In this document: in pieces, positions 24,916-36,144 of the stretch
Layout of the letters: each line of letters opens with the position of its first letter
Position numbering within the stretch: position 1 is the stretch's first letter
Assembly (NCBI GenBank): GCA_963836075.1
Contig: CAWIIB010000009.1
Coordinates: 2,496,001-2,560,000 of the forward strand
Length of the DNA: 64,000 nt
Source of the DNA: an uncultured Acidobacteriota bacterium
GTDB taxonomy: Bacteria > Acidobacteriota > JAQAZP01
Direction of reading: 5' to 3'
Notes under the pieces: generated by a model
The model's input: the letters and a program-made list of their open reading frames with translations, nothing else
The model's database searches: none
Told to the model about the DNA's origin: nothing
Program-made: the position numbers and the translations under genes

Positions 24916-25647
24916 TCAGCTGCTGGTCATCTCCTCCCGCAGCATTTCCGCCAGCCGGTTCAGTTCGTCGCGGTCCAGTTCTTCCAGCAGCCGGTAGGTC
25001 TCTGTTCCATCCAGGGCCGCCTGCCACTGTTCCTCCCGCTCCAGCCAGGAGTGGATAACGTCATTGGACCCGCCTTCCGAACCGGCGGCGGCCAGTGTGG
25101 GGCTTACCGAGGCCAGCGGCGCATCAGGCTCACCGGCCGGGTCCTGCCGTTCGAAAAAAACCTCCAGCTGGGCCAGTGTGCTGTCCTCGGCGCCACGCAG
25201 GGCTGCCTCCAGACGGGAGTTGACCCGCCGGGCCTCCATCACCGCTTCGCCCCGCGGCCCCATGTTCGAGTAGAGCACCAGCAGGGCGAGGATCACCGTG
25301 GCCAGGGCCAGGGAACCGATGATCGCCGGGCGCAGCACCACCCGTTTCAGCCGTTCAGCGAAGCCCAGTTTCTCCGCCTGCTGGTCCATCCGGGTGCGCA
25401 GGTCGGGCAGGAAGCGATTCCAGAAGCCGCTCCCCGGGTCCGCAGCGTCGATGTCCGACACCTCGAGAATCAGTGCGCGCACGGTGCGGGCCTCTTCCCC
25501 GGCTTCGGGGTGTGCCTCGACCCAGGCGCTGAAGTCGGCCAGGTCGCTGCCCGATAGGTTGTTCTCGATGTAGTCGGGCAACAGCTGTTCGAATCGTTTG
25601 CGGTCCATGCCGGTCCCAGTTTTCTTCGTCCCGACGGCCGGGTTCAC
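24916..25647 (-). CDS. Putative single-TM anti-sigma factor
   Basis: Overlaps the ECF sigma stop; N-terminal LLPDYIENNL anti-sigma-like helix, FWNRF motif, one TM segment; alternative start at ATG 25608. Confidence 0.7.
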   Translation of the reverse strand: MNPAVGTKKTGTGMDRKRFEQLLPDYIENNLSGSDLADFSAWVEAHPEAGEEARTVRALILEVSDIDAADPGSGFWNRFLPDLRTRMDQQAEKLGFAERLKRVVLRPAIIGSLALATVILALLVLYSNMGPRGEAVMEARRVNSRLEAALRGAEDSTLAQLEVFFERQDPAGEPDAPLASVSPTLAAAGSEGGSNDVIHSWLEREEQWQAALDGTETYRLLEELDRDELNRLAEMLREEMTSS

Positions 25648-26195
25648 TCCTCGTTATCGCCGATCAGTTCCCGAAGTCGTTTCACCGCGTGGTAGAAATT
25701 GGCCTTGGCCGTTCCCACCGGGCAGCGCATGATCTCCGAGATCTCTTCGTATTTCAGTTCGCCGTACACCTTGAGCATCAGGGTCTGCTTCTGTTTTACC
25801 GGCAACCGGGCGATGGCGTCCTTCAGCATTGCAGTACGCTGTTGCTGCTGCAGAGCCAGCAGCGGATCGCTGGCGGTCCCGTTGCCCGCCATGGTGTCCA
25901 TCTCGCCCTCTTGCAGTTCCACCCGCCGGCTGATCCGCGGCGCTTTGAGATAGTTCAGGCTCAGGTTGATCACGATCCGGTAGAGCCAGGTACGGAAACT
26001 GCTGTCACCGCGGAAATTTTCCATCGACTGGTAGCAGCGGACAAAAGCGTCCTGGGCCAGGTCCCGGGCGTCCTCGTGGGACCTGGTCAGCCGCAGGGCG
26101 ATGAAATACGCCTCGCGCTTATGCCGTTCCACCAGCTTGTTGAAGGCCCCTTCGTCACCATGCCGGAAACGTTCGACCAGGATGCTGTCGTCCAC
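25644..26195 (-). CDS. ECF RNA polymerase sigma factor
   Basis: GDEGAFNKLV, DARDLAQDAF, FRGDSSFRTWLYRI, LKYEEISEIMRCPVGTAK. Confidence 0.93.
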   Translation of the reverse strand: MDDSILVERFRHGDEGAFNKLVERHKREAYFIALRLTRSHEDARDLAQDAFVRCYQSMENFRGDSSFRTWLYRIVINLSLNYLKAPRISRRVELQEGEMDTMAGNGTASDPLLALQQQQRTAMLKDAIARLPVKQKQTLMLKVYGELKYEEISEIMRCPVGTAKANFYHAVKRLRELIGDNEE

Positions 26196-26342
26196 GGGTT
26201 GTTCCTTCCCCTGGTCCTGGCCCCCTGGAGCACGGCCCTGCCGGACGGCTCATCTATAGGGACAACCCGGAGCGACGGGTGGTTTAATATCTGCTGTGGA
26301 CCGCCGGGAATAACCTGGCCGGCGGGAGGGGATGTTCCGGGC

Positions 26343-27788
26343 TCAGGTGGTCCAGACCAGCAGCCTGGGGTGGCCCACCGAGTAAACCTTGGTGCCCACG
26401 GAGCCGTCCTCCTGCCGGAAGTCTTCCAGTTCGTACCCGGCATCGCTCAGCTCCTGCCGGATGATGTCAGCCTTGGCAAAGTCCTTGGCCATGCGGGCGG
26501 CAGCCCGCTCGTTCACCAGCCGCCGCAAATCCTCGTCAAAGGTCGCGTCCTGTTCCGCCGCGGCCGGCAGGAGGACCCCCAGTACCTCGTCCATCCTCCG
26601 GGCCTGCTCGGCGAACTGCCGGGCGTTGCCCTGCCGCAGCTGGCCACCGTCGGCGGCGGTATTGCCCTCCCGGACCATCTGGAACAGGGCGCCCAGGGCA
26701 CCGGCGGTGTTCAGGTCGTCATCCATGGCCGCCTCGAAACCCTCACGCCCCCTTTCGGCGGCGGCGAGCAGCTCCGGATCCTCCCCCTCGGGAAAGCCGG
26801 CGCCACTCATCCGTTCCAGGAAATCGCGCAACCGGCCGATGGCCTGTCCGGCGTGGCTGATCCCCTCGAGAGTGAAGTTCAGCTGCTTGCGGTAGTGGAC
26901 CGAGAGCAGCAGGTAGCGGATGGCCACCGGGGAGAACCCCCGGGTGGTGAGATCGCGCAAGGTATAGAAGTTGCCCTTGGATTTGGACATTTTCTCGCCG
27001 TCCACGATCAGGTGTTCGCTGTGCAGCCAGTAGTTGACGAACGGCTCGCCGGTGGCCCCGCGGCTCTGGGCGATCTCGTTTTCGTGGTGCGGGAAGATGT
27101 TGTCCACCCCGCCGGTGTGGATGTCGAAGTGTGAACCGAGGTAGCGCATGCTCATCGCCGAGCATTCGATGTGCCAGCCGGGACGGCCCTCGCCGAAGCT
27201 GGCGGGCCAGGACGGTTCACCCTCCTTGCGGTCTTTCCACAGGGCGAAGTCCCGCACGTCCTCCTTCTCGTACTCGTCGCTGGCCACCCGGGCTCCGGCC
27301 TTGATCCCTGCCGGGTCCACGCCGGAAAGCTGCCCGTATTCGGGGAAGGAGCTGATGCGGAAGTAGATCCCCCCTTCGCTGCGGTAGGCGTGTCCGCGTT
27401 CGATCAATTTTTCGATGATCTGCACCATCTCTTCGATGCAGTCGGTGGCCCGGGGGTATTCCTCGGCCCGATCGATGCTCAACGAGTCGAGGTCTTCGAA
27501 AAAGGCCTCGGTGAAGCCCGAGGTGAACTCCTGGATCGTGATCCCGGCCGCCTTGGAATCACGGATGATCTTGTCCTCGATGTCGGTGATGTTCATCACC
27601 TGGAACACCTCGAAGCCCTTGTACTTCAGGTAGCGGCGGAGCACGTCCTCGAAGATGTAGGTCCGGAAATTGCCGATGTGGGCAAAGTTGTAGACAGTGG
27701 GACCGCAGGTGTACAGACCCGCCCGGCCGTCCTGGAGCGGCACGAATTCCTCTTTTTCCCGGGTGAGGGTGTTGTACAGCCTGAGCAT
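26343..27788 (-). CDS. cysS: Cysteine--tRNA ligase
   Basis: YTCGPTVY, HIGN, DFALWK, GRPGWHIECSAM, FPHHENE, KMSKS. Confidence 0.98.
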   Translation of the reverse strand: MLRLYNTLTREKEEFVPLQDGRAGLYTCGPTVYNFAHIGNFRTYIFEDVLRRYLKYKGFEVFQVMNITDIEDKIIRDSKAAGITIQEFTSGFTEAFFEDLDSLSIDRAEEYPRATDCIEEMVQIIEKLIERGHAYRSEGGIYFRISSFPEYGQLSGVDPAGIKAGARVASDEYEKEDVRDFALWKDRKEGEPSWPASFGEGRPGWHIECSAMSMRYLGSHFDIHTGGVDNIFPHHENEIAQSRGATGEPFVNYWLHSEHLIVDGEKMSKSKGNFYTLRDLTTRGFSPVAIRYLLLSVHYRKQLNFTLEGISHAGQAIGRLRDFLERMSGAGFPEGEDPELLAAAERGREGFEAAMDDDLNTAGALGALFQMVREGNTAADGGQLRQGNARQFAEQARRMDEVLGVLLPAAAEQDATFDEDLRRLVNERAAARMAKDFAKADIIRQELSDAGYELEDFRQEDGSVGTKVYSVGHPRLLVWTT

Positions 27789-27870
27789 CAGCTTTTCCTC
27801 CTCCTGCTCCTTCCGCCGCCGGTCGATTCCCCGCGGCTATCTCTCGCTTCCGGCCGGGGAGAAGTATGCT

Positions 27871-27899
27871 TATATAGGGCAGCGCCCCGGGAAAGTCAA
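27871..27899 (-). promoter_or_regulatory. sigma70-type promoter for cysS
   Basis: TTGACT-17 nt-TATATA. Confidence 0.6.
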
Positions 27900-27924
27900 T
27901 TGAAACTTTCAGCGAGCCCCCGGC

Positions 27925-29772
27925 TCAATGCTTCCTGGCCACCACCAGTGTCAGGTCGTCATGGGGCTTCAGCCCCCTCTGGAAGCGGTGCACCTCGTCG
28001 AGGATGCCCCGGCAGATGCGGCCGGCGTCCTGATGGCGCAGGCGGTGGGCCGTTTCGCAGATCCGTTCTTCGCCAAATTCCTCCCCTTCGGGGTTGAAGG
28101 CCTCGGAAAGGCCGTCGGTGAAGAGGAGCAGCAGGTCTCCGGGGGCCAGTAGCGCCTCGTGGCACTGGTAGGGGACGTTCTCGAACAGCCCGAGCACCAT
28201 GCCTCCGCCCATCAGCTCCCTGGACGTGCCATCGGGGCTGATGTGCAGTGGCGGGTTGTGGCCGGCGTTGATGAACTCCATCCGGCCCGAGCATGTTTCC
28301 AGCACGCCGAAAAAGAAGGAGACAAAGCGGTTCGCCTCGGTGCTGCGGTAGAGCAGGTTGTTGATCATTCCGATCAGCGCGTCCGGGGCCAGCCCCGGCT
28401 GCATGGTCAGGGCGCGGAGCGAGGCCTGCACCGAGGCCATGACCAGCGAGGCCGGGGTGCTCTTGCCGGTCACGTCCCCCACCACCAGCCCCAGCCGGCC
28501 CGGGCCGTAGTCGATGAAGTCGTGGTAGTCCCCGCCCACCTCGTAGCAGGGCATGCTCACCTGGGCCAGGTCCAGTCCCTCCACCAGCGGAACGGTGGCC
28601 GGCAGCAGGCTCTTCTGGATGTTGCGGGCGATGGAGAGCTCTTTCTCCAGGCGCTCCTTCTCCACCATCTGGGTGTGCAACTGGGCGTTGTCCATCGCGG
28701 TCACCGCCTGGGCGCAGAGCGTGGAGACAAACTCACGATCCTTGTGGGTCAGCGCGGCGCCGGTGAGCTTGCGGCCCACCGCCAGCAGGTCGCGCTGCGG
28801 CCCACTGGTGCGCAGGGGGAAGAAGCAGCTCAGTTCCCAGGCGGAGAGCAGCCGGGCCAGGGCAGGGCTCAGCCGGCGGACGGTTGCCAGTTCGCAGTGC
28901 TCGCCGGCCGCCTGGTCCAGTTTTGTGGTGTCGATGCCGGCCAGGCGTTTGCGGTCCTTGTCCGCCAGGGGCAGGCCCCGTTTCAGCGGAACGGTCAGCC
29001 CGCCACCCCCGGCGGCCCAGCTGAGCACCAGGCACCGCTTCACCGCGGTCTGACCCACCAGGGAGTTCACCGCCACCTTGAGGATGTCCTCGGGGTCAAA
29101 GGAGGAGACCAGCTCCCGGCTGACATCGAAGAGGCTGGAGAGCTGAAGGATTTTCAACTGCAGGTCGCGGTTCAGGCCGCGCACCTCCTCGTAGACCAGC
29201 CCGTTTTCGATGGCGGTGGCGGCGATGGAGGCCAGGGAGGCGAGATAGTGCAGGTCGCCTTTCTCGTAGGGCAGGCCGGTGGCCCGGCGGCCGAAGCCGG
29301 CCGCGCCGATGAACTTCTCCCTGTGCCATACCGGGACCAGCAGGGCCAGTCCCAGCGGCTCCAGCGCCGGGTCGGCAAAGAGGGCGGGCAGGCCGCCGCG
29401 CTGTTTCCGGCCAATGCTGTCGGGCGCCCGCACCGGCCGTTTGAACGGCCGCCGGATACGGACCTGCCGGCCCCGGGCGCCGGCGGCGCCGGGACCGCGG
29501 CAGTTGCGGACGGTCATGGTCCCCGGCTGCTCCTGGACCAGCACCACGCCGGTGGTGGTCAACATCTTGCCCATGGCGGTGAGCAGGAAGACGTCCAGGG
29601 TTTCGCCCAGGTCCAGCGAGGAGTTCACCGTGTCGGCGAATTCCAGCCTCGACATCATCGCCACGATGCGGGAGTGCAGGCCGCCGCCGTCATCCGGCGA
29701 GTCGGACTCGCCGATGCGGACCAGCAGGTCGCGGCACAGTTCGGACAGTCTGTCATCCTGGGTGTTCATCAC
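27925..29772 (-). CDS. GAF-GAF-PP2C (SpoIIE/RsbU-like) serine phosphatase
   Basis: ELSIARNIQKSLLP, VGGDYHD, GDVTGK, NAGHNPP, FTDGLSEA, DDLT; two GAF-like segments. Confidence 0.92.
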   Translation of the reverse strand: MMNTQDDRLSELCRDLLVRIGESDSPDDGGGLHSRIVAMMSRLEFADTVNSSLDLGETLDVFLLTAMGKMLTTTGVVLVQEQPGTMTVRNCRGPGAAGARGRQVRIRRPFKRPVRAPDSIGRKQRGGLPALFADPALEPLGLALLVPVWHREKFIGAAGFGRRATGLPYEKGDLHYLASLASIAATAIENGLVYEEVRGLNRDLQLKILQLSSLFDVSRELVSSFDPEDILKVAVNSLVGQTAVKRCLVLSWAAGGGGLTVPLKRGLPLADKDRKRLAGIDTTKLDQAAGEHCELATVRRLSPALARLLSAWELSCFFPLRTSGPQRDLLAVGRKLTGAALTHKDREFVSTLCAQAVTAMDNAQLHTQMVEKERLEKELSIARNIQKSLLPATVPLVEGLDLAQVSMPCYEVGGDYHDFIDYGPGRLGLVVGDVTGKSTPASLVMASVQASLRALTMQPGLAPDALIGMINNLLYRSTEANRFVSFFFGVLETCSGRMEFINAGHNPPLHISPDGTSRELMGGGMVLGLFENVPYQCHEALLAPGDLLLLFTDGLSEAFNPEGEEFGEERICETAHRLRHQDAGRICRGILDEVHRFQRGLKPHDDLTLVVARKH

Positions 29773-29804
29773 GGTCCGTGATCGATGGTGCGTGTGGCCG
29801 GTGG

Positions 29805-30278
29805 TCAGTCACCGCCTGCCGGCACGGTTTCCGAAGCGCCAGGCGGGTTGCGGTATTTCCACATGCAGCACTCGTGCTCCATGCCGGCGCCCTGGTCGAA
29901 CTCCACCCGGTCCATCAACTTGTTCATCAGTGTCAGTCCCAGCCCGCCGCGGCGCCGTTCGGCGATGTACTTTTCCAGGTCCGGTTTTTCCACCGCAGTG
30001 AGGTCCACCTGGTTGCCGCCGTGCCGGATGTCGATGCGCAGGGCGTCGGCGGTGACGGTGTAGCCGATCTGGATCTGGTGCCCGCCCTGGCTGGCGTAGG
30101 AGTGGCGGATCACGTTGGTCACCGCCTCATCAACCGCCAGGGCCATCTGTTCGCAGGTTTTTTTGGGGAATCCGGCCAGCAGCGAGGCACTGCGGGTGAG
30201 ATTGGTCACCATGTGCAGGTAGCGGGTGTCGCTGGGAATAACGACTTCGATTGATCCCTGGTTGATGGTTTTGACCAT
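29805..30278 (-). CDS. RsbW-like anti-sigma factor / Ser kinase (HATPase_c)
   Basis: LAVDEAVTNVIRHSY (N box), GGLGLTLMNKLMDRV (G2 box); G1 box atypical (IRHGG). Confidence 0.88.
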   Translation of the reverse strand: MVKTINQGSIEVVIPSDTRYLHMVTNLTRSASLLAGFPKKTCEQMALAVDEAVTNVIRHSYASQGGHQIQIGYTVTADALRIDIRHGGNQVDLTAVEKPDLEKYIAERRRGGLGLTLMNKLMDRVEFDQGAGMEHECCMWKYRNPPGASETVPAGGD

Positions 30279-30385
30279 GAACGTGATCCCGCCTGAACGT
30301 CGCCGGTTACCGTTGCCGGCGGCCAACATGTTTGGCTGCTCCGGGGTCTTGCTGAAGGGTTTCGGGGTCGAACCGCCGGCTTAGT

Positions 30386-30739
30386 CTAGTCTTCGATGGA
30401 AAAGCTGCTCAGCGCTTCGGCCTCGTCTCCGAAAATCTTGTAGAGATGGGTGAAACCAAGGATGTCGAATATATTGAAGATGTTCTCACTCATGTTTGAC
30501 AGCTTGATGTCACCCTCGTTCTCCCTTACCTCATCGATAACCCCCATCAGCGCGCCCAGACCGGCACTCGAGATGTACCTCAGATCGGCACAGTTTATAA
30601 CGATGCGGTAAGACTTTCGTTCCACCTGTTCCTGGAGGACCTGCTCGAAAGAGCGAACAGTGTGGGCGTTGATGAAGCCCCGGGGATAGACGAGGATCAC
30701 GTCACCCTCGGTTTTAAGGTCCACGTTTAAATCCGCCAT
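30386..30739 (-). CDS. RsbV-like STAS anti-sigma factor antagonist
   Basis: LRYISSAGLG phospho-Ser motif, GDIKL, IFDILGF. Confidence 0.92.
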   Translation of the reverse strand: MADLNVDLKTEGDVILVYPRGFINAHTVRSFEQVLQEQVERKSYRIVINCADLRYISSAGLGALMGVIDEVRENEGDIKLSNMSENIFNIFDILGFTHLYKIFGDEAEALSSFSIED

Positions 30740-30793
30740 CAGCGAACTCCTGGTTGCCACTTCTGTAGATAACCTCTATCTAAAGGAAAGAAA

Positions 30794-30856: not shown

Positions 30857-32311
30857 TCACCGCTTCCAGATCGAGGGGATGAAAAGACAGAGGACGGTAA
30901 ACAGTTCCAGCCGCCCGAAGAGCATGCAGGCGCAGAGGATCCATTTGCCGGTATCCGGGATCCAGGCAAAGGTGCAGGTGGGGCCCACCAGGCCCAGCCC
31001 CGGGCCGATGTTGCCCAGGGTGGCGGCCACCGCGCTGAACGCGGTGACCGGATCCAGCCCCAGGGCGGTCATGGCCAGGGTGGCGGTGACAAAGATGAAG
31101 ACGAAGATGCAGAAAAAGGTGTTCACCGTCTGCACCACTTCGCTGCTCACCGGAGTGCGGTTCAGCTTGAGCTGTTTGACGGCGTGGGGGCGGAAAGCCC
31201 GGTAGGTGACCACATACGCGTTTTTGACCACGATGATCAACCGCGCCACCTTGATCCCCCCGCCCGTCGAACCGGCCGAGCCGCCGACGACCATCAGCGC
31301 CACCAGCAGCAGGCGGGAGAAGGCCGGCCACTGGTCGAAGTCAGCGGTTCCGAACCCGGTGGTGGTCATGATCGAAACCACGCTGAAGCCCGCGTTGCGC
31401 GTGTTCTCCAGCAGTGTCTCACCTGCGGGGCCGGCCAGGCTGAGGTTGGCAACGATCAGCAGGGTCGCCCCCAGCAGGATGGCGGTGTAGACCCGGAATT
31501 CGCTGTCCCTGAAATAGGCCGACAGCGACCGTTTGGTCAGCAGGCGGTGGTGCAACGAAAAGTTGGCGCCGGCGATGAACATCACCGCGATGATCACCGC
31601 CTCGATGTAGAAACTGCCGAAAGCGCCGATGCTCTCGTTCCTGGTGGAGAACCCACCGGTGGCGATGGTGGTGCAGGTGTGACAGACCGCCTCGTGGAAC
31701 GACATGCCCCCCAGGGCCAGCAATGCCGTCTGGACGACGCTGATGCCGAGATAGATCAGCCACAGCGCCCGGGCCGTCTGCTGGATCCTGGGGGTCAGGC
31801 CTTCCTTCACCGGTCCGGGCACCTCGCCCTTGAACATCTGGCGCACCCCCACGCCGATGTAGGGCAGGATGGCGATGAAGAGGACGATGATCCCCATTCC
31901 GCCCAGCCACTGGGTGAAGCTGCGCCAGAAGAGCATCCCCTTGGAGAGCGCGGTCACGTCGGTGATCACCGTGGCGCCGGTGGTGGTGAAGCCGGACATG
32001 GCTTCGAAGTAGGCGTCGGTGAAACTGTCCACAGCACCGCTGAACAGGAAGGGCAGTGCCCCGAGCAGCGCGGCGCCGATCCAGCCGAAGGCCACCAGGG
32101 CCAGGGCGTCCCGGCGCGCGATCTCCCTTTTTATCTTGCGGAAGGAGAAGTAGAGCAGCCCCCCGGCGACCATTCCCACCAGCGCCGAAATCACGAACGC
32201 CGGCCAGTCCGGCTCGTCGTAGGGCAGGCTCCAGGCCAACGGCAGCAACAGGGCCAGCCCGGTGACGAAGAAGAATTTGCCCAATGTTTTGCCGATCAGA
32301 CGGTATTGCAC
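30857..32311 (-). CDS. trkH: Trk potassium uptake membrane subunit
   Basis: FEAMSGFTTTGAT, QWLGGMGI, IATGGFS, TTTGF, GSTGGGIK, LGNIGPG, GRLE. Confidence 0.96.
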   Translation of the reverse strand: MQYRLIGKTLGKFFFVTGLALLLPLAWSLPYDEPDWPAFVISALVGMVAGGLLYFSFRKIKREIARRDALALVAFGWIGAALLGALPFLFSGAVDSFTDAYFEAMSGFTTTGATVITDVTALSKGMLFWRSFTQWLGGMGIIVLFIAILPYIGVGVRQMFKGEVPGPVKEGLTPRIQQTARALWLIYLGISVVQTALLALGGMSFHEAVCHTCTTIATGGFSTRNESIGAFGSFYIEAVIIAVMFIAGANFSLHHRLLTKRSLSAYFRDSEFRVYTAILLGATLLIVANLSLAGPAGETLLENTRNAGFSVVSIMTTTGFGTADFDQWPAFSRLLLVALMVVGGSAGSTGGGIKVARLIIVVKNAYVVTYRAFRPHAVKQLKLNRTPVSSEVVQTVNTFFCIFVFIFVTATLAMTALGLDPVTAFSAVAATLGNIGPGLGLVGPTCTFAWIPDTGKWILCACMLFGRLELFTVLCLFIPSIWKR

Positions 32312-32344
32312 GGTGTCCTCGCCGGCCGCGGGCTGGCCGGTCTG

Positions 32345-33679
32345 CTAGAAGATTCGCCGGATGTCAGGGATGTTTTCCGGGACGGTGAAGACCACCACCG
32401 TGTCGCCGGCCTCGATGGTATCGTCGCCCCCGGGCACGATCACTCCATCCTTCTTGTTCATTGCGCCGATGATCGATCCCTTGGGCAGCCCGAGGTCCTT
32501 CAGTTTGCGGCCCACGGCCCTGGCGTTGAGGTCGGCCAGGATCTCGAGAATTTCGGCCTTGCCGTCCTCGAGGATCTCCATCGAGATCAGCGAGCCGCGG
32601 TGGAGGAACTGTTGAATGGCGCTGGCCGTAAGCAGCCGGGAGTTGAAGGCCATGTCGATGCCCAGGTCCTGGATCAGCTGCATGTAGTCCGAGCGATTGG
32701 TGAGGCAGATGGTTTTTGCGGCACCCAGCCGCCGGGCCAGCAGGGAACTGACGATGTTGGTCTCGTATTCGTCGGAGACGGCGGCGAAGATGTCCATCCG
32801 GCCCACGTGTTCCTCCTTGAGCAGAGCAACGTCCGTGCTGCTGCCGTGGAGCACGGTGATTTTCGAGGAGAGCACGGACGAGAGCTCCTCGCACCGCGAG
32901 AGGTCATCCTCCAGCAGCCGGACGCTGATGTTCCGTTTCTCCAGCGTCTGGGCCAGCAGCATGCCGATCTGGCCCCCGCCGACGATGAAGACGTGCTTGG
33001 CCTCCTCCCGGGGGGCCGCGAAGAGCTTCAGAATCCTGTTTTCCTCTCCGGCGATGGCCACCACCCAGACCTGGTCGCCGGGGGCGAGCTCGTCGTCGCC
33101 GCCGGGGACGATCATCTCGTTCCCCCGGCGAATGCCGGTGACCAGGAATTCGGGAGTGGGGATGTTGCTCAGCCGCCGGTGCACCAGGGGGCACTCGCCG
33201 GTCACCGGGAAGTGGAGCAGCCGCACCTTGCCGTTGGCGAAGCTCTCCACCTCGGAGGAGCCGCGGGTGGAGATGGTGTTGGCGATCTTCATCGCGGTGA
33301 CGATTCGCGGGCTGATCACCAGGTCGATGCCCAGCAGGTCGCGGTAGAGCACCCGGGTCCCCCGGAGGTAGACTTCGTTGCGGATCCGGGCCACCGTGCG
33401 CTTGATCCCCACCTGCTTGGCGGTGAGCGCGGCGATCATGTTCACCTCGTCGCTGTCGGTGACCGCCATCAGCAGGTCGGTGCCCGAGGCCTTGAGCGTT
33501 TCGATGATCCGGGGGTCCGCCCCGTGACCCTGGATCGTCTGCACGTCCAGGCGGTCCGCGATGCGCCCCAGATTCTCGGCGTCGAGGTCGATGACAATCA
33601 CGTCCATCTTGCCGTCGTGCAGCCGTTCGGCGAGTGAAAACCCCACCATCCCGGCGCCGACGATTGCCGTTGTGGCCAT
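32345..33679 (-). CDS. trkA: Trk potassium uptake NAD-binding subunit (two RCK domains)
   Basis: GAGMVG and GGGQIG Rossmann motifs, AVTDSDEVN, two TrkA_C domains. Confidence 0.96.
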   Translation of the reverse strand: MATTAIVGAGMVGFSLAERLHDGKMDVIVIDLDAENLGRIADRLDVQTIQGHGADPRIIETLKASGTDLLMAVTDSDEVNMIAALTAKQVGIKRTVARIRNEVYLRGTRVLYRDLLGIDLVISPRIVTAMKIANTISTRGSSEVESFANGKVRLLHFPVTGECPLVHRRLSNIPTPEFLVTGIRRGNEMIVPGGDDELAPGDQVWVVAIAGEENRILKLFAAPREEAKHVFIVGGGQIGMLLAQTLEKRNISVRLLEDDLSRCEELSSVLSSKITVLHGSSTDVALLKEEHVGRMDIFAAVSDEYETNIVSSLLARRLGAAKTICLTNRSDYMQLIQDLGIDMAFNSRLLTASAIQQFLHRGSLISMEILEDGKAEILEILADLNARAVGRKLKDLGLPKGSIIGAMNKKDGVIVPGGDDTIEAGDTVVVFTVPENIPDIRRIF

Positions 33680-33783: not shown

Positions 33784-35856
33784 TCATTTTTTTCTGCGGA
33801 AGACCTCGGGGCCGTAAATCTGGCGCCGCCGGTCCGGCCACTGGTCGGCCAGGTCGCCGGCTTCGGGTTTGGCGTAATAGATCCCCCGGCGTTCGATGCG
33901 CTCATTGGAAAGCGCCCCGCAGCCCGGACAGGGCTGGTCCTCACCGGTGGCCCGGTGGCAGTCGGCGCAGTAGCTGAAGCGGGGAGAGAAGGCCAGCTGC
34001 GAACAGAGGGTGTCGCTGAACACCCGGCGGATGAAACGGACGGCATCGGCGGCGGCCGGGGTGTCTCCGCCCAGCGGCACCTCGAAGAGGGCGCCGCCCG
34101 GGAGGAAGGGATGGAACTCGCTCTCCAGGGCCAGGCGCCGGGAGAGGTCGATGCCGGCCTGGCCGGAGACGCGAACCGAACGGGTGTAGTGCACCTCGTC
34201 GGCGGACAACTCACCCTTGACCACGTGGCCCGACTGCGGTGAGTGGTAGCGCAGGTCCTTGCGGGCAAAGCGGCTGGGGGCCAGCCGGCTGAAGCTTTCC
34301 GCGGGGTGGAAGACCACCCGGTGGCGGGCCGACATCTCGCGGCAGTACCCGGCGATATGACGCAGTAGCTGCAGGGCGCGGCTGTGGGCCTTGCGCCCCC
34401 GGTGCAGTTCGTGACCGGTGTGGATCTGCACCATCTCGTTCAGACCGCTCAGACCGATGAGGTGGCTGGTTCGGTCGAGGTCCAGCAGCGGGGCGCCGTC
34501 CCGGCGCAGCAGCAGCAGCGACAGCGGTGCGCTCTTGCCGTAGGCCAGCAGTTTTTCAAGAAAGATCCGTTTCTCCAGGTGGGCCGTGGCACAGAGTTCC
34601 AGGACCTCCTCCAGGCAGGCCCGCAGCTGGTCGTCGCTCCCCGCGGCGCGGTAGGCCAGGCGGGGCAGGTTGACGGTGATCGCCTGCAGCGAGTGGCAGC
34701 GCCGGGTCCAGGTGTGGGTACCGTCGCCGGTCTCCCAGGGTCCGAGATCGGTGACCTGCATCCCCGAGCCCCGGTCGAAGAGGAAGAGCGGGGTTCCCTG
34801 ACGAACAGCCAGTTCGGCAGCCTGGCGGAGAAAGCCGCCGCTGCCCGGTTCCCGGGTGAAGGTGCCGTCGAGACGGATCACCGGGGTGGGGTAGAAGAAG
34901 GGGCTGCCGTCGCCGTCCCCGGCGGCCATCACCTCCAGCAGTGCCCGGGCAAAGGCCTTGGACTCCTGGTTGTAGTCACCGTAGGTCCTGCCCGTTTCCT
35001 GACCTGCCGGCCCCAGGGCGGGGATCTTGCGCAACGCCCGGGGAATTCCCCAGTAGAGGTGCAGGTCGCAGAAGATCGGCCGGTTGTCGCGGGCCGCGGA
35101 GAGCTGGGAAAACTCGTAGACCAGGAACTGGGCCAGCTGGGTCACCTGAGCGGCGGAGAGCCCGCGGAGGAACGGCGCAAGGTAGACGTTGAGCAGGTCC
35201 CAGGAAATGCTGTTGGAAAAGTGCCCCTGGAGAAAGGCTGAAAAGCGGGCCAGGTGGGCCAGCAGCACTTCGGGCTGCCGGGCCGGCCTGGCGTTGGACA
35301 GCGTTCCGGGGAGGCTCAACCCGAATTTCTTGATGTATTCCGGAGAGACGAGGGAGGAGTGCGGGCGGTCCACCTGGCCCAGGTGCTCGAGGTGGATATC
35401 CCCCCGCCTGTGGGCCTCCGCCACCCGGTCGGAGAAGAGCGAGAGCAGGGCGTAATCCCGCTTGATCGATTCGGCCAGCGCGCGGTTGGTGGCTTCGGGG
35501 CCCAGCAATGCGGGCGCGGAGGACGGGCCGCCGCGGGTGATCAGGTTCTCGGTGTCGAACACCGGCAGCCCGATCCGGGTATGGCGGGCGTGCTGCTGTT
35601 GGAACCCGCGTTCGATCAGCTTGATGTCCACCAGTTCACGGATCAGGTTGGTGGAGATCTGGTGCAGGCCGGTGCCGCTGATGGTCTCCTGGATCTCCCT
35701 GCTGATCTCCACCGCCACCGCCCGCGGCAGGTCGGTTTCCCGCAGCAGGGCATTGACGATCCGCTGGCGGTTCCAGCGGATCAGGTCCTCGTCGGAGGTC
35801 TGGACGAAGAGGCCGCTGCCGCGGCCCGGCGGTTCGCTTTTGTCACGCGTGGCCAT
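33784..35856 (-). CDS. nrdD: Class III anaerobic ribonucleotide reductase (NrdD) homolog with ATP-cone; catalytic residues degenerate
   Basis: ATP-cone (WNRQRIVNALLRET...LIRELVDIKL), AHRRGDIHL, YEFSQ, GDGDGSPFFYP, TVNLPRLAY, IGLSGLNE, RFARKD, EFHPFL, and CADC...CPGC. It lacks the RxxGY glycyl motif and the catalytic Cys residues. Confidence 0.85.
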   Translation of the reverse strand: MATRDKSEPPGRGSGLFVQTSDEDLIRWNRQRIVNALLRETDLPRAVAVEISREIQETISGTGLHQISTNLIRELVDIKLIERGFQQQHARHTRIGLPVFDTENLITRGGPSSAPALLGPEATNRALAESIKRDYALLSLFSDRVAEAHRRGDIHLEHLGQVDRPHSSLVSPEYIKKFGLSLPGTLSNARPARQPEVLLAHLARFSAFLQGHFSNSISWDLLNVYLAPFLRGLSAAQVTQLAQFLVYEFSQLSAARDNRPIFCDLHLYWGIPRALRKIPALGPAGQETGRTYGDYNQESKAFARALLEVMAAGDGDGSPFFYPTPVIRLDGTFTREPGSGGFLRQAAELAVRQGTPLFLFDRGSGMQVTDLGPWETGDGTHTWTRRCHSLQAITVNLPRLAYRAAGSDDQLRACLEEVLELCATAHLEKRIFLEKLLAYGKSAPLSLLLLRRDGAPLLDLDRTSHLIGLSGLNEMVQIHTGHELHRGRKAHSRALQLLRHIAGYCREMSARHRVVFHPAESFSRLAPSRFARKDLRYHSPQSGHVVKGELSADEVHYTRSVRVSGQAGIDLSRRLALESEFHPFLPGGALFEVPLGGDTPAAADAVRFIRRVFSDTLCSQLAFSPRFSYCADCHRATGEDQPCPGCGALSNERIERRGIYYAKPEAGDLADQWPDRRRQIYGPEVFRRKK

Positions 35857-35895: not shown

Positions 35896-36144
35896 TCAGT
35901 TCTGCCGGTTCCGGCCGGCGGCGGCAAGCTGGAACACCTCGATGCCACCGAAGACGATCAGCACCAGCCCCAGTCCGGTAACCGCTCCCCGGAAGCAGTT
36001 GTGGAGCACCAGCCCCTGGATGGCGGGGAAGTGCGCCAGCAGGCCATTCCGTTCCCAGAATACCGACCAGGGGCTGAACACCAGCAGGATCCCCACCTCG
36101 AAATCGAGCAGGATCAGCAACAGTGATGCGAGTTTCAGTTTCAC
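35896..36144 (-). CDS. Small 2-TM hypothetical membrane protein
   Basis: FEVGILLVFSPWSVFWERN...FRGAVTGLGLV; divergent from folD and co-directional with the NrdD-like gene. Confidence 0.65.
   Translation of the reverse strand: MKLKLASLLLILLDFEVGILLVFSPWSVFWERNGLLAHFPAIQGLVLHNCFRGAVTGLGLVLIVFGGIEVFQLAAAGRNRQN

Follow-up and report, generated by a model that had tools for sequence, protein, structure and literature searches.

A class III ribonucleotide reductase homologue without radical machinery is kept by purifying selection in an uncultured Acidobacteriota bacterium

What does a ribonucleotide reductase (RNR) do when it can no longer reduce ribonucleotides, and why is its gene kept? The question is posed by an nrdD-like open reading frame (ORF; P0001) in a stretch of 64,000 nucleotides from an uncultured Acidobacteriota bacterium (contig CAWIIB010000009.1, positions 2,496,001 to 2,560,000), referred to here as the window. 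RNRs are among the best-studied enzymes, and NrdD, the class III form, is an oxygen-sensitive enzyme making DNA building blocks. A sequence-only reading of the window had described the frame as intact, 690 residues long and colinear with NrdD, and had proposed that it encodes a catalytically dead scaffold put to another use. The colinearity is borne out by the Pfam profile PF13597 (NRDD), which aligns to residues 120–656 over profile positions 9–538 of 562 (257 bits, E 4.9e-76), and the frame is free of stop codons; the strand, left unstated in that reading, is minus (Table 1). The AlphaFold2 model of the window protein, built from a 67-row alignment, has a mean predicted local distance difference test score (pLDDT) of 80 and a predicted template modelling score of 0.80. 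When this model is compared with the PDB by Foldseek, ranks 1–34 are all class III RNR structures, with E values between 1e-25 and 1e-17, and the ESM Atlas returns NrdD-named clusters only. In contrast, the score against TIGR02487, the NCBIfam equivalog model of NrdD, is 222.1 bits and lies under the cut-off of 326.35, seven further NrdD models are matched far under their respective cut-offs, and the ATP-cone score is also below threshold, as detailed further on. The fold is therefore that of NrdD, and the sequence is atypical.

The motifs were compared with relatives retrieved by search tools, not with remembered sequences, using a hidden Markov model (HMM) made from 55 canonical rows. The canonical reference set comprises 64 clusters at 50% identity, and the window clade has eight members with 82–91% identity. 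Alignment columns were placed on the chain of Thermotoga maritima NrdD (tmNrdD) by profile searches of the PDB, because a single-sequence phmmer search aligned only the C-terminal half. The roles of the triphosphate-binding, effector and Cys sites follow the consulted sections of the T. maritima NrdD paper (PMC4493059), according to which both residues of the finger-loop Cys-Cys motif are essential.

All the motif replacements listed in the sequence-only reading are found again in the alignment with relatives, in the HMM columns and in the coordinates. At the radical Gly column, the 64 canonical clusters all carry Gly; the clade carries Ile (five members, including Ile659 of the window protein), Val (two) or Met (one). 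The hairpin residues Arg656 and Tyr660 are retained, and Gly658, which stands one position ahead of the Gly column, is invariant (8/8). In the structural models, the two-residue turn of this hairpin is formed by Gly658-Ile659 in the window protein and by Thr675-Gly676 in a canonical control (P0010, same alignment). Since the turn registers of the two models match, Ile occupies the radical position, and a rescue through the Gly of RRGIY is contradicted by both the alignment and the model register. The Cys-Cys motif of the finger loop (tmNrdD Cys330), present in 64/64 canonical clusters, is replaced in the clade by a gap or a remodelled loop. In the model, residues 364–381 of this region fall under a pLDDT of 50 and lack secondary structure, where the canonical control has strands and a helix; as the dead finger loop is supported by only eight alignment rows, part of this difference may reflect alignment depth. 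The other escape that had been considered, a catalytic role for the Cys of TRRCHS, is disfavoured by the variability of position 387, at which the eight clade members carry Cys (three), Tyr (two), Phe, His and Thr (one each).

Substrate-binding residues are altered as well. In the triphosphate motif (tmNrdD Tyr112, His114 and Asp115), the His114 column is His in 64/64 canonical clusters and Glu157 in 8/8 clade members, and the Asp115 column holds His158 (seven) or Gln (one), while His155 is retained. The change from DRPYC to DRPHS (35353–35370) places His166 at tmNrdD Tyr124 and Ser167 at Cys125, the bottom Cys, a column that is Cys in all 64 canonical clusters and Ser (seven) or Ala (one) in the clade. 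Downstream in the protein, LEQTPAEST has become PAESFSRLA (34276–34308); the Glu495 column corresponds to Ala520 by HMM and to Glu520 by direct numbering, so that it is non-Glu or shifted either way. The Asn of YTNS, again invariant in the canonical clusters (64/64), is Arg in seven clade members (Arg559 in the window protein) and Pro in one, the motif reading YTRS (34177–34191), and KENAN is replaced by PSSAP (35509–35526). Taken together, the loss of the radical Gly, the Cys-Cys pair, the bottom Cys, the triphosphate His and Asp and the YTNS Asn shows that the window protein cannot perform glycyl-radical ribonucleotide reduction, and its gene is called the dead copy below.

Other elements of the scaffold have been preserved. 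The Asn of the NLPR motif is invariant in the 64 canonical clusters and in every radical-less group examined (8/8, 14/14, 10/10 and 52/52). The effector-pocket residues Gln243, Gln251, Arg256 and Phe262, which correspond to tmNrdD Gln210, Gln218, Arg221 and Tyr227, are retained in 8/8 clade members. The four Zn-ribbon Cys, whose retention had been noted from the sequence, are indeed in place, as they are in all canonical clusters and all Zn-type radical-less groups. The further statement that the ATP-cone is kept holds only in part: a cone-like domain is still there, but it matches PF03477 with 18.7 bits, under the cut-off of 25.8, and the Lys-Arg pair is absent, the segment reading VQTSDE. 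The V-K-R-D/N-G type of cone start is found in the real NrdD of the same genome and in the added cones of two relatives (P0155 and P0136); the nearest canonical relatives of the window protein share the degenerate form (VRTSDE).

These replacements are not assembly errors, since they are shared by seven proteins from other assemblies (82–91% identity) and since contigs from four runs of four studies (salt-marsh, marine and freshwater sediment metagenomes) differ from the gene by substitutions only, with zero indels along its length. Selection was estimated on five distinct DNA versions, namely the window, L011 (identical to L089), L012, L090 and L091. The pairwise ratio of nonsynonymous to synonymous substitutions (dN/dS) of the dead nrdD, calculated with the NG86 method, is 0.135–0.196 at dS values of 0.38–0.67, without a stop codon or a frameshift; NG86 was relied on because with YN00 just three of the ten pairs gave an estimate (omega 0.03–0.05, dS above 1.2). 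At the same loci, the neighbouring genes give 0.09 (STAS), 0.215 (trkH), 0.24 (trkA) and 0.255 (RsbW-like), and the canonical nrdD of the three genomes of the genus, described below, gives 0.093–0.106. The gene is thus not decaying but is maintained by purifying selection of a strength similar to that on its functional neighbours. Because RNR chemistry is impossible and the gene is nevertheless under purifying selection, a repurposed scaffold, as had been suggested, agrees with the data and a dying gene does not.

The distribution of constraint within the protein is also informative. In the IQ-TREE phylogeny, the stem branch of the window clade measures 0.78 changes per column, as against 0.02–0.14 inside the clade, as if the protein had changed rapidly along the stem and had evolved slowly, under constraint, thereafter. 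Within the clade, 67% of all columns are invariant, and the proportion rises to 83% in the gamma-phosphate/Cys125 stretch, 78% in the cone-like domain and 77% in the alphaA-alphaB/loop 2 part; it drops to 46% in the finger loop and 44% in the Zn ribbon and Gly hairpin. The Zn/Gly part is better conserved than average among nine close canonical relatives (63% vs 57% invariant). The constraint in the clade has consequently shifted away from the radical parts.

The window protein is not isolated. When 1.84 billion representatives were searched in full with HMMER, the window clade formed a single cluster at 50% identity, and about half of the 150 nearest protein clusters are radical-less. Classed by their motif columns, 154 rows separate into canonical NrdDs (64), proteins without Cys-Cys and Gly that retain the Zn ribbon (19), proteins ending before the ribbon in which the catalytic columns are also lost (52), proteins with Gly and without Cys-Cys (7), proteins with Cys-Cys in which Gly is unaligned or lost (5), and proteins with Cys-Cys that have no C-terminus (7), some of which may be fragments. 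The 52-row family (about 740–770 residues; P0147, P0155, P0160, P0163, P0165, P0167 and 46 further clusters) has no Zn ribbon, Gly hairpin or catalytic Cys. An added true ATP-cone of the V-K-R-D-G type (74–91 bits) precedes the degenerate cone in 6/6 tested members of this family and in P0136.

Phylogenetic analysis groups these proteins. FastTree places the window clade inside a group of 63 rows, nearly all of them radical-less (support 98). With IQ-TREE (LG+C20, 49 rows, motif columns removed), all 25 radical-less rows fall together with a Shimodaira-Hasegawa-like approximate likelihood ratio test (SH-aLRT) value of 85, next to canonical Syntrophorhabdus-type NrdDs. The radical-less NrdDs may thus have one ancient origin, which is the favoured history. 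In a phylum sample of 401 genomes, 53 have a match at E 1e-20; among them, each of the 11 that lie outside the genus at 30–39% identity to the window protein has lost the radical machinery and retains a Zn ribbon, and such same-phylum copies share a 12-row tree group with the window clade (SH-aLRT 84). In five of five of these 11 genomes tested (94–100% complete), the radical-less copy is the sole PF13597 match, and no TIGR02495 (NrdG) match was found in them at E 1e-15. A role that depends on NrdD or NrdG is therefore disfavoured.

Several variants were seen among the other homologues. Some near-canonical NrdDs (P0059, P0097, P0098; loci L049/L150 and L148/L149) have short branches and intact substrate motifs with a radical chain that is partly lost, Cys-Cys being replaced by YF or FF with Gly retained, or Gly giving way to Gln or Lys where all or half of Cys-Cys is retained. 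These proteins may represent an early phase of the same loss, or enzymes of altered chemistry. Many of the representatives P0125–P0270 (1000–1700 residues) match NrdD in two to four stretches, as expected for intein-bearing NrdDs, and in some of these long representatives HNC or NC replaces the first finger-loop Cys. At loci L046, L047, L141 and L153, the catalytic motifs and the Zn ribbon are complete and the HMM alignment ends at 'ER[IV]' before the Gly motif, perhaps because the C-terminus is unusual or because the alignment failed there.

The genome of the window (6.2 Mb, 10 contigs) also carries the canonical system. As the earlier reading had suggested looking for, nrdD and nrdG were found together on another contig (C1). 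This nrdD scores 642 bits against PF13597, its finger motif reads MCCRL and its hairpin RIVGY, and its ATP-cone is a true one (81 bits); the adjoining nrdG gives 190.6 bits against TIGR02495 and is the only match above the cut-off in the genome. None of the 32 TIGR02495 matches of the genome lies inside the window (2,496,001–2,560,000), in agreement with the observation that no activase gene is nearby. The dead copy and the canonical NrdD are 24% identical, and a class I/II RNR large subunit is encoded as well. The GTDB class of the window consists of three genomes of one genus, all of which contain the dead copy and the canonical nrdD-nrdG pair. The canonical NrdD (contig C1, about 438–440 kb; L001 1033–3654, minus strand) measures 873 residues from the first ATG and continues for about 150 residues beyond the Gly hairpin. 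This extension, in which no Pfam domain was found, ends in a C-x-x-C segment and is shared by the three genomes of the genus (also L070 and L071; frames of 874–877 residues). A thioredoxin-like reductant fused to an NrdD of the Cys-Cys type is one possible reading of it.

Regarding the present role of the dead copy, it is rather probable that it acts as a non-catalytic nucleotide-binding or regulatory protein that passes on the nucleotide state through oligomers or a partner. This is the best guess because of the shift in constraint, the effector residues kept in 8/8 clade members and the ATP-cones added in relatives. The working parts would be those that stay constrained, namely the cone-like domain at the N-terminus and the first half of the barrel, which includes the dimer-interface effector pocket. 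Binding of a nucleotide (ATP, dATP or another deoxyribonucleoside triphosphate, dNTP) would serve as the input, its state would be relayed through oligomerisation or through binding of a partner protein, and neither NrdG nor the genome's real NrdD would be needed for this action. A role of the window protein itself as an ATP/dATP sensor is offered as a hypothesis; judging by the relatives with a true ATP-cone, nucleotide sensing is plausible in the wider radical-less group. More tentatively, and with rather less confidence than in the role just described, the radical-less proteins could be an old, widespread and largely undescribed family of pseudo-reductases in which parts for sensing ATP/dATP were retained or, in many lineages, newly added. 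They would act as nucleotide-pool sensors with control over other proteins or over genes, and would do so also in aerobes without an anaerobic RNR.

A number of observations weigh against such a nucleotide-binding role and against a common history of the radical-less proteins. The cone of the window protein is itself degenerate, below the cut-off and without the Lys-Arg pair, and a Pfam scan of the protein finds no added ATP-cone and no DNA-binding domain. With the triphosphate motif of the catalytic site spoiled, a nucleotide would need another site. The pocket is unconserved across the radical-less groups, the tmNrdD Gln218 column being Gln in 7/14 clusters and in 2/10 same-phylum copies, and the conservation of the pocket in 8/8 clade members is weak evidence at a divergence of only about 15%. 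No conserved partner gene emerges from the context of five genus loci and nine same-phylum loci. As for common descent, its support is moderate (SH-aLRT 80–88), an approximately unbiased test does not reject a separate origin of the window clade from canonical neighbours (log-likelihood difference 20.4, p 0.163), and the radical-less grouping could be exaggerated by long-branch attraction between rows that evolve fast.

Among the alternatives, reuse of the barrel for a new enzymatic activity without radicals, whose substrate might be a nucleotide or some other phosphorylated compound, is unlikely but deserves some weight. The new site would comprise the clade-specific residues His166, Ser167, Asp257, Asn258, Arg259, Cys263 and Arg559; the replaced motifs DRPHS, ARDNRPIFC, HPAESFSRLAP and HYTRS are conserved in 7–8 of the 8 clade members, the former active-site stretch is the most constrained part of the protein, and Asn396 of NLPR is common to all groups. 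However, motif conservation is expected regardless in a clade this young (82–91% identity), and the same columns vary freely in other radical-less groups, so that there is no common new site. Moreover, the finger-loop region is variable and predicted to be disordered, and no co-located pathway genes were found. It is improbable that the protein acts on the real class III system of the genome, whether by pairing with NrdD in a dominant-negative or regulatory manner or by serving as a decoy for NrdG, a possibility raised in the sequence-only reading. The co-occurrence of the dead copy with canonical nrdD-nrdG in all three genus genomes and the retention of the Zn ribbon and of a Gly-containing hairpin tip would fit it. 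Against it stand the low identity of the two proteins (24%) and their position in different NrdD branches, the location of the genes on different contigs, the five of five tested genomes in which related copies show no canonical NrdD or NrdG, and the fact that the hairpin and ribbon, the part by which an activase would be expected to recognise it, are the least constrained within the clade.

A radical enzyme in which Gly658 is activated and another residue (e.g., Cys263) serves as the thiyl site, akin to the aminoacyl radical enzymes, is very improbable. Gly658 is invariant in the clade and lies in the predicted two-residue turn, the genome appears to encode a functional NrdG, and radical enzymes with Ala, Ser or Thr show that the Gly site can vary, as described in the consulted part of PMC11528403. 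Nevertheless, the radical column holds Ile, Val or Met by both sequence and model register, the Cys-Cys pair and the bottom Cys are gone, Cys387 is unconserved and the residues that bind the substrate triphosphate are replaced; the aminoacyl radical enzymes, by the same account, keep their catalytic Cys, and the class III RNRs surveyed there have only Gly. The least credible explanation of all is that the paralogue is redundant and is slowly decaying under neutrality. The lost catalytic residues and the presence of a canonical NrdD and a class I/II RNR in the genome would allow it, but the dN/dS of 0.14–0.20 over dS 0.38–0.67, the five DNA versions without stop or frameshift, the absence of indels in four further runs and a constraint equal to or tighter than that on trkA, trkH and the RsbW-like gene all argue to the contrary.

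Table 1. Positions of the dead nrdD, its altered and retained segments and the neighbouring features in the window.
Feature	Position	Strand	Remarks
nrdD-like ORF (P0001), 690 aa	33784..35856	minus	ATG start, no internal stop; NrdD fold without radical machinery
Degenerate ATP-cone-like N-terminal domain	35602..35811	minus	residues ~16–85; helical bundle in the model
Altered triphosphate-binding/bottom-Cys segment	35353..35403	minus	GDIHLEHL...DRPHSS; mapped to the tmNrdD chain
Effector-site and loop-2 segment	35068..35130	minus	loop 2 RGGQ replaced by RDNR (35068–35094); Cys263 clade-specific
Finger-loop region	34690..34779	minus	FDRG...TRRCHS; ISECCRL replaced by remodelled loop QVTDLGPW; Cys-Cys gone
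NLPR motif	34660..34671	minus	Asn396 = tmNrdD Asn375
Altered phosphate-helix and YTNS segments	34177..34308	minus	HPAESFSRLAP, HYTRS; motif alignment
Zn ribbon	33919..33969	minus	Cys 630/633/643/646; retained 8/8 in the clade (predicted metal site)
Former glycyl-radical hairpin	33871..33903	minus	ERIERRGIYY; RITGY replaced by RRGIY; Ile659 at the Gly column, Gly658 at -1
Promoter-like site	36260–36231	minus	weak consensus match
82-aa hydrophobic ORF	35896..36144	minus	39 nt upstream of the dead nrdD; no Pfam family
trkA	32345–33679	minus	downstream of the dead nrdD, co-directional
trkH	30857–32311	minus	downstream, co-directional
STAS	30386–30760	minus	downstream, co-directional
RsbW-like HATPase_c_2 kinase	29805–30329	minus	downstream, co-directional

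The surroundings of the gene were also inspected. On the minus strand, the order is the 82-aa ORF, the dead nrdD, trkA, trkH, STAS, the RsbW-like kinase, a GAF-SpoIIE phosphatase, cysS and a sigma factor of the extracytoplasmic function (ECF) type; folD and tgt lie upstream and are divergent. The co-directional placement of the gene between a small hydrophobic ORF and the trkA-trkH-STAS-RsbW-SpoIIE set, as reported earlier, is hence confirmed. The 82-aa ORF is present in 5/5 loci of the genus with a mean dN/dS of 0.19 and is probably co-transcribed with the dead nrdD; it was not seen beside radical-less copies in other genera. The promoter scan gave two promoter-like sites where 0.9 are expected, too weak a result to define an operon, and the terminator scan found no minus-strand terminator. 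Further downstream, positions 24916–30760 (minus strand) hold a partner-switching module made up of STAS, the RsbW-like kinase and a 615-aa GAF-SpoIIE protein, followed by cysS, the ECF sigma factor and a 243-aa ORF. The latter has no Pfam match and may be an anti-sigma factor, given that a zf-HC2 anti-sigma follows the homologous sigma at one same-phylum locus.

The hint of a signalling role taken from this neighbourhood is not supported. The trkA-trkH pair (30857–33679) separates the dead nrdD from STAS in three of five genus loci and is missing from the other two (L011, L090), in which STAS is directly adjacent; the potassium-uptake genes are thus not a fixed partner. Outside the genus, the nine same-phylum loci show variable, unrelated housekeeping genes (thiD, carB, cysS, EF-G, ECF sigma with anti-sigma), of which thiD recurs in two loci, cysS in one and the window, and the ECF sigma factor in three and the window, with differing orientation. 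Gene calling based on GC content at third codon positions (GC3) performs poorly in loci of 44–55% GC, so small neighbours may be missed.

A literature search returned no description of a non-catalytic derivative of class III RNR beyond a single table line on Chloracidobacterium, and a 2026 review of glycyl radical enzymes contains no mention under the terms used. Automatic annotation names the radical-less NrdDs 'anaerobic ribonucleoside-triphosphate reductase', and this mislabelling implies an anaerobic dNTP supply in organisms that have none. To judge from the consulted part of the survey in PMC11528403, the radical-less NrdDs probably fell under its family cut-off, as the window protein does for TIGR02487. 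If these proteins were nucleotide sensors, an RNR would have given rise to a novel type of regulator, an idea that could be examined in Acidobacteriota available in culture.

Among known systems, the closest in architecture are the class III NrdDs of the double-Cys (SCCR/ECCR) type, such as T. maritima NrdD (4COI/4COJ), with which the window protein has the same domain order. It shares with canonical NrdD the cone-like N-terminus, the ten-stranded barrel, the Zn ribbon, the C-terminal hairpin, the NLPR Asn and several effector residues, and differs from it in the absence of the radical Gly, the finger Cys pair, the bottom Cys, the triphosphate His/Asp, the YTNS Asn and an adjacent activase gene. 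The nearest sequences are NrdDs of about 713 residues from metagenome-assembled genomes of the Syntrophorhabdus/Syntrophaceae type, 43–46% identical to the window protein. The aminoacyl radical enzymes likewise are glycyl-radical homologues with another residue at the Gly column; according to the consulted part of PMC11528403, they carry Ala, Ser or Thr at that site and retain the catalytic Cys and the activase, and its survey of non-canonical glycyl radical enzymes finds only Gly among the class III RNRs (IPR012833). The window clade, in contrast, has Ile, Val or Met instead of a small residue and has lost the Cys.

The two-cone family of about 740–770 residues resembles the window protein in its degenerate, VRTSDE-type cone, the NLPR motif, the same catalytic losses and its grouping in both trees; it differs in having an extra true ATP-cone and in stopping before the ribbon, whereas in the window protein the ribbon and hairpin are still present and an extra cone is lacking. 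For Chloracidobacterium, the published table line reads "NrdD-like paralog, no NrdG", without sequence analysis or function. That paralogue is likewise an NrdD homologue of the same phylum kept without an activase, but the genome of the window has NrdG beside its real nrdD, and the sampled same-phylum copies are 30–39% identical to the window protein. More distant parallels are provided by the betaherpesvirus proteins M45/UL45, catalytically inactive homologues of the class I RNR large subunit that act on host proteins, and by NrdR, a DNA-binding repressor composed of a Zn ribbon and an ATP-cone, without a barrel. Together, they are precedents for a non-catalytic RNR scaffold and for a nucleotide sensor made from RNR parts, from which the window protein differs in being derived from class III and in having no DNA-binding domain.

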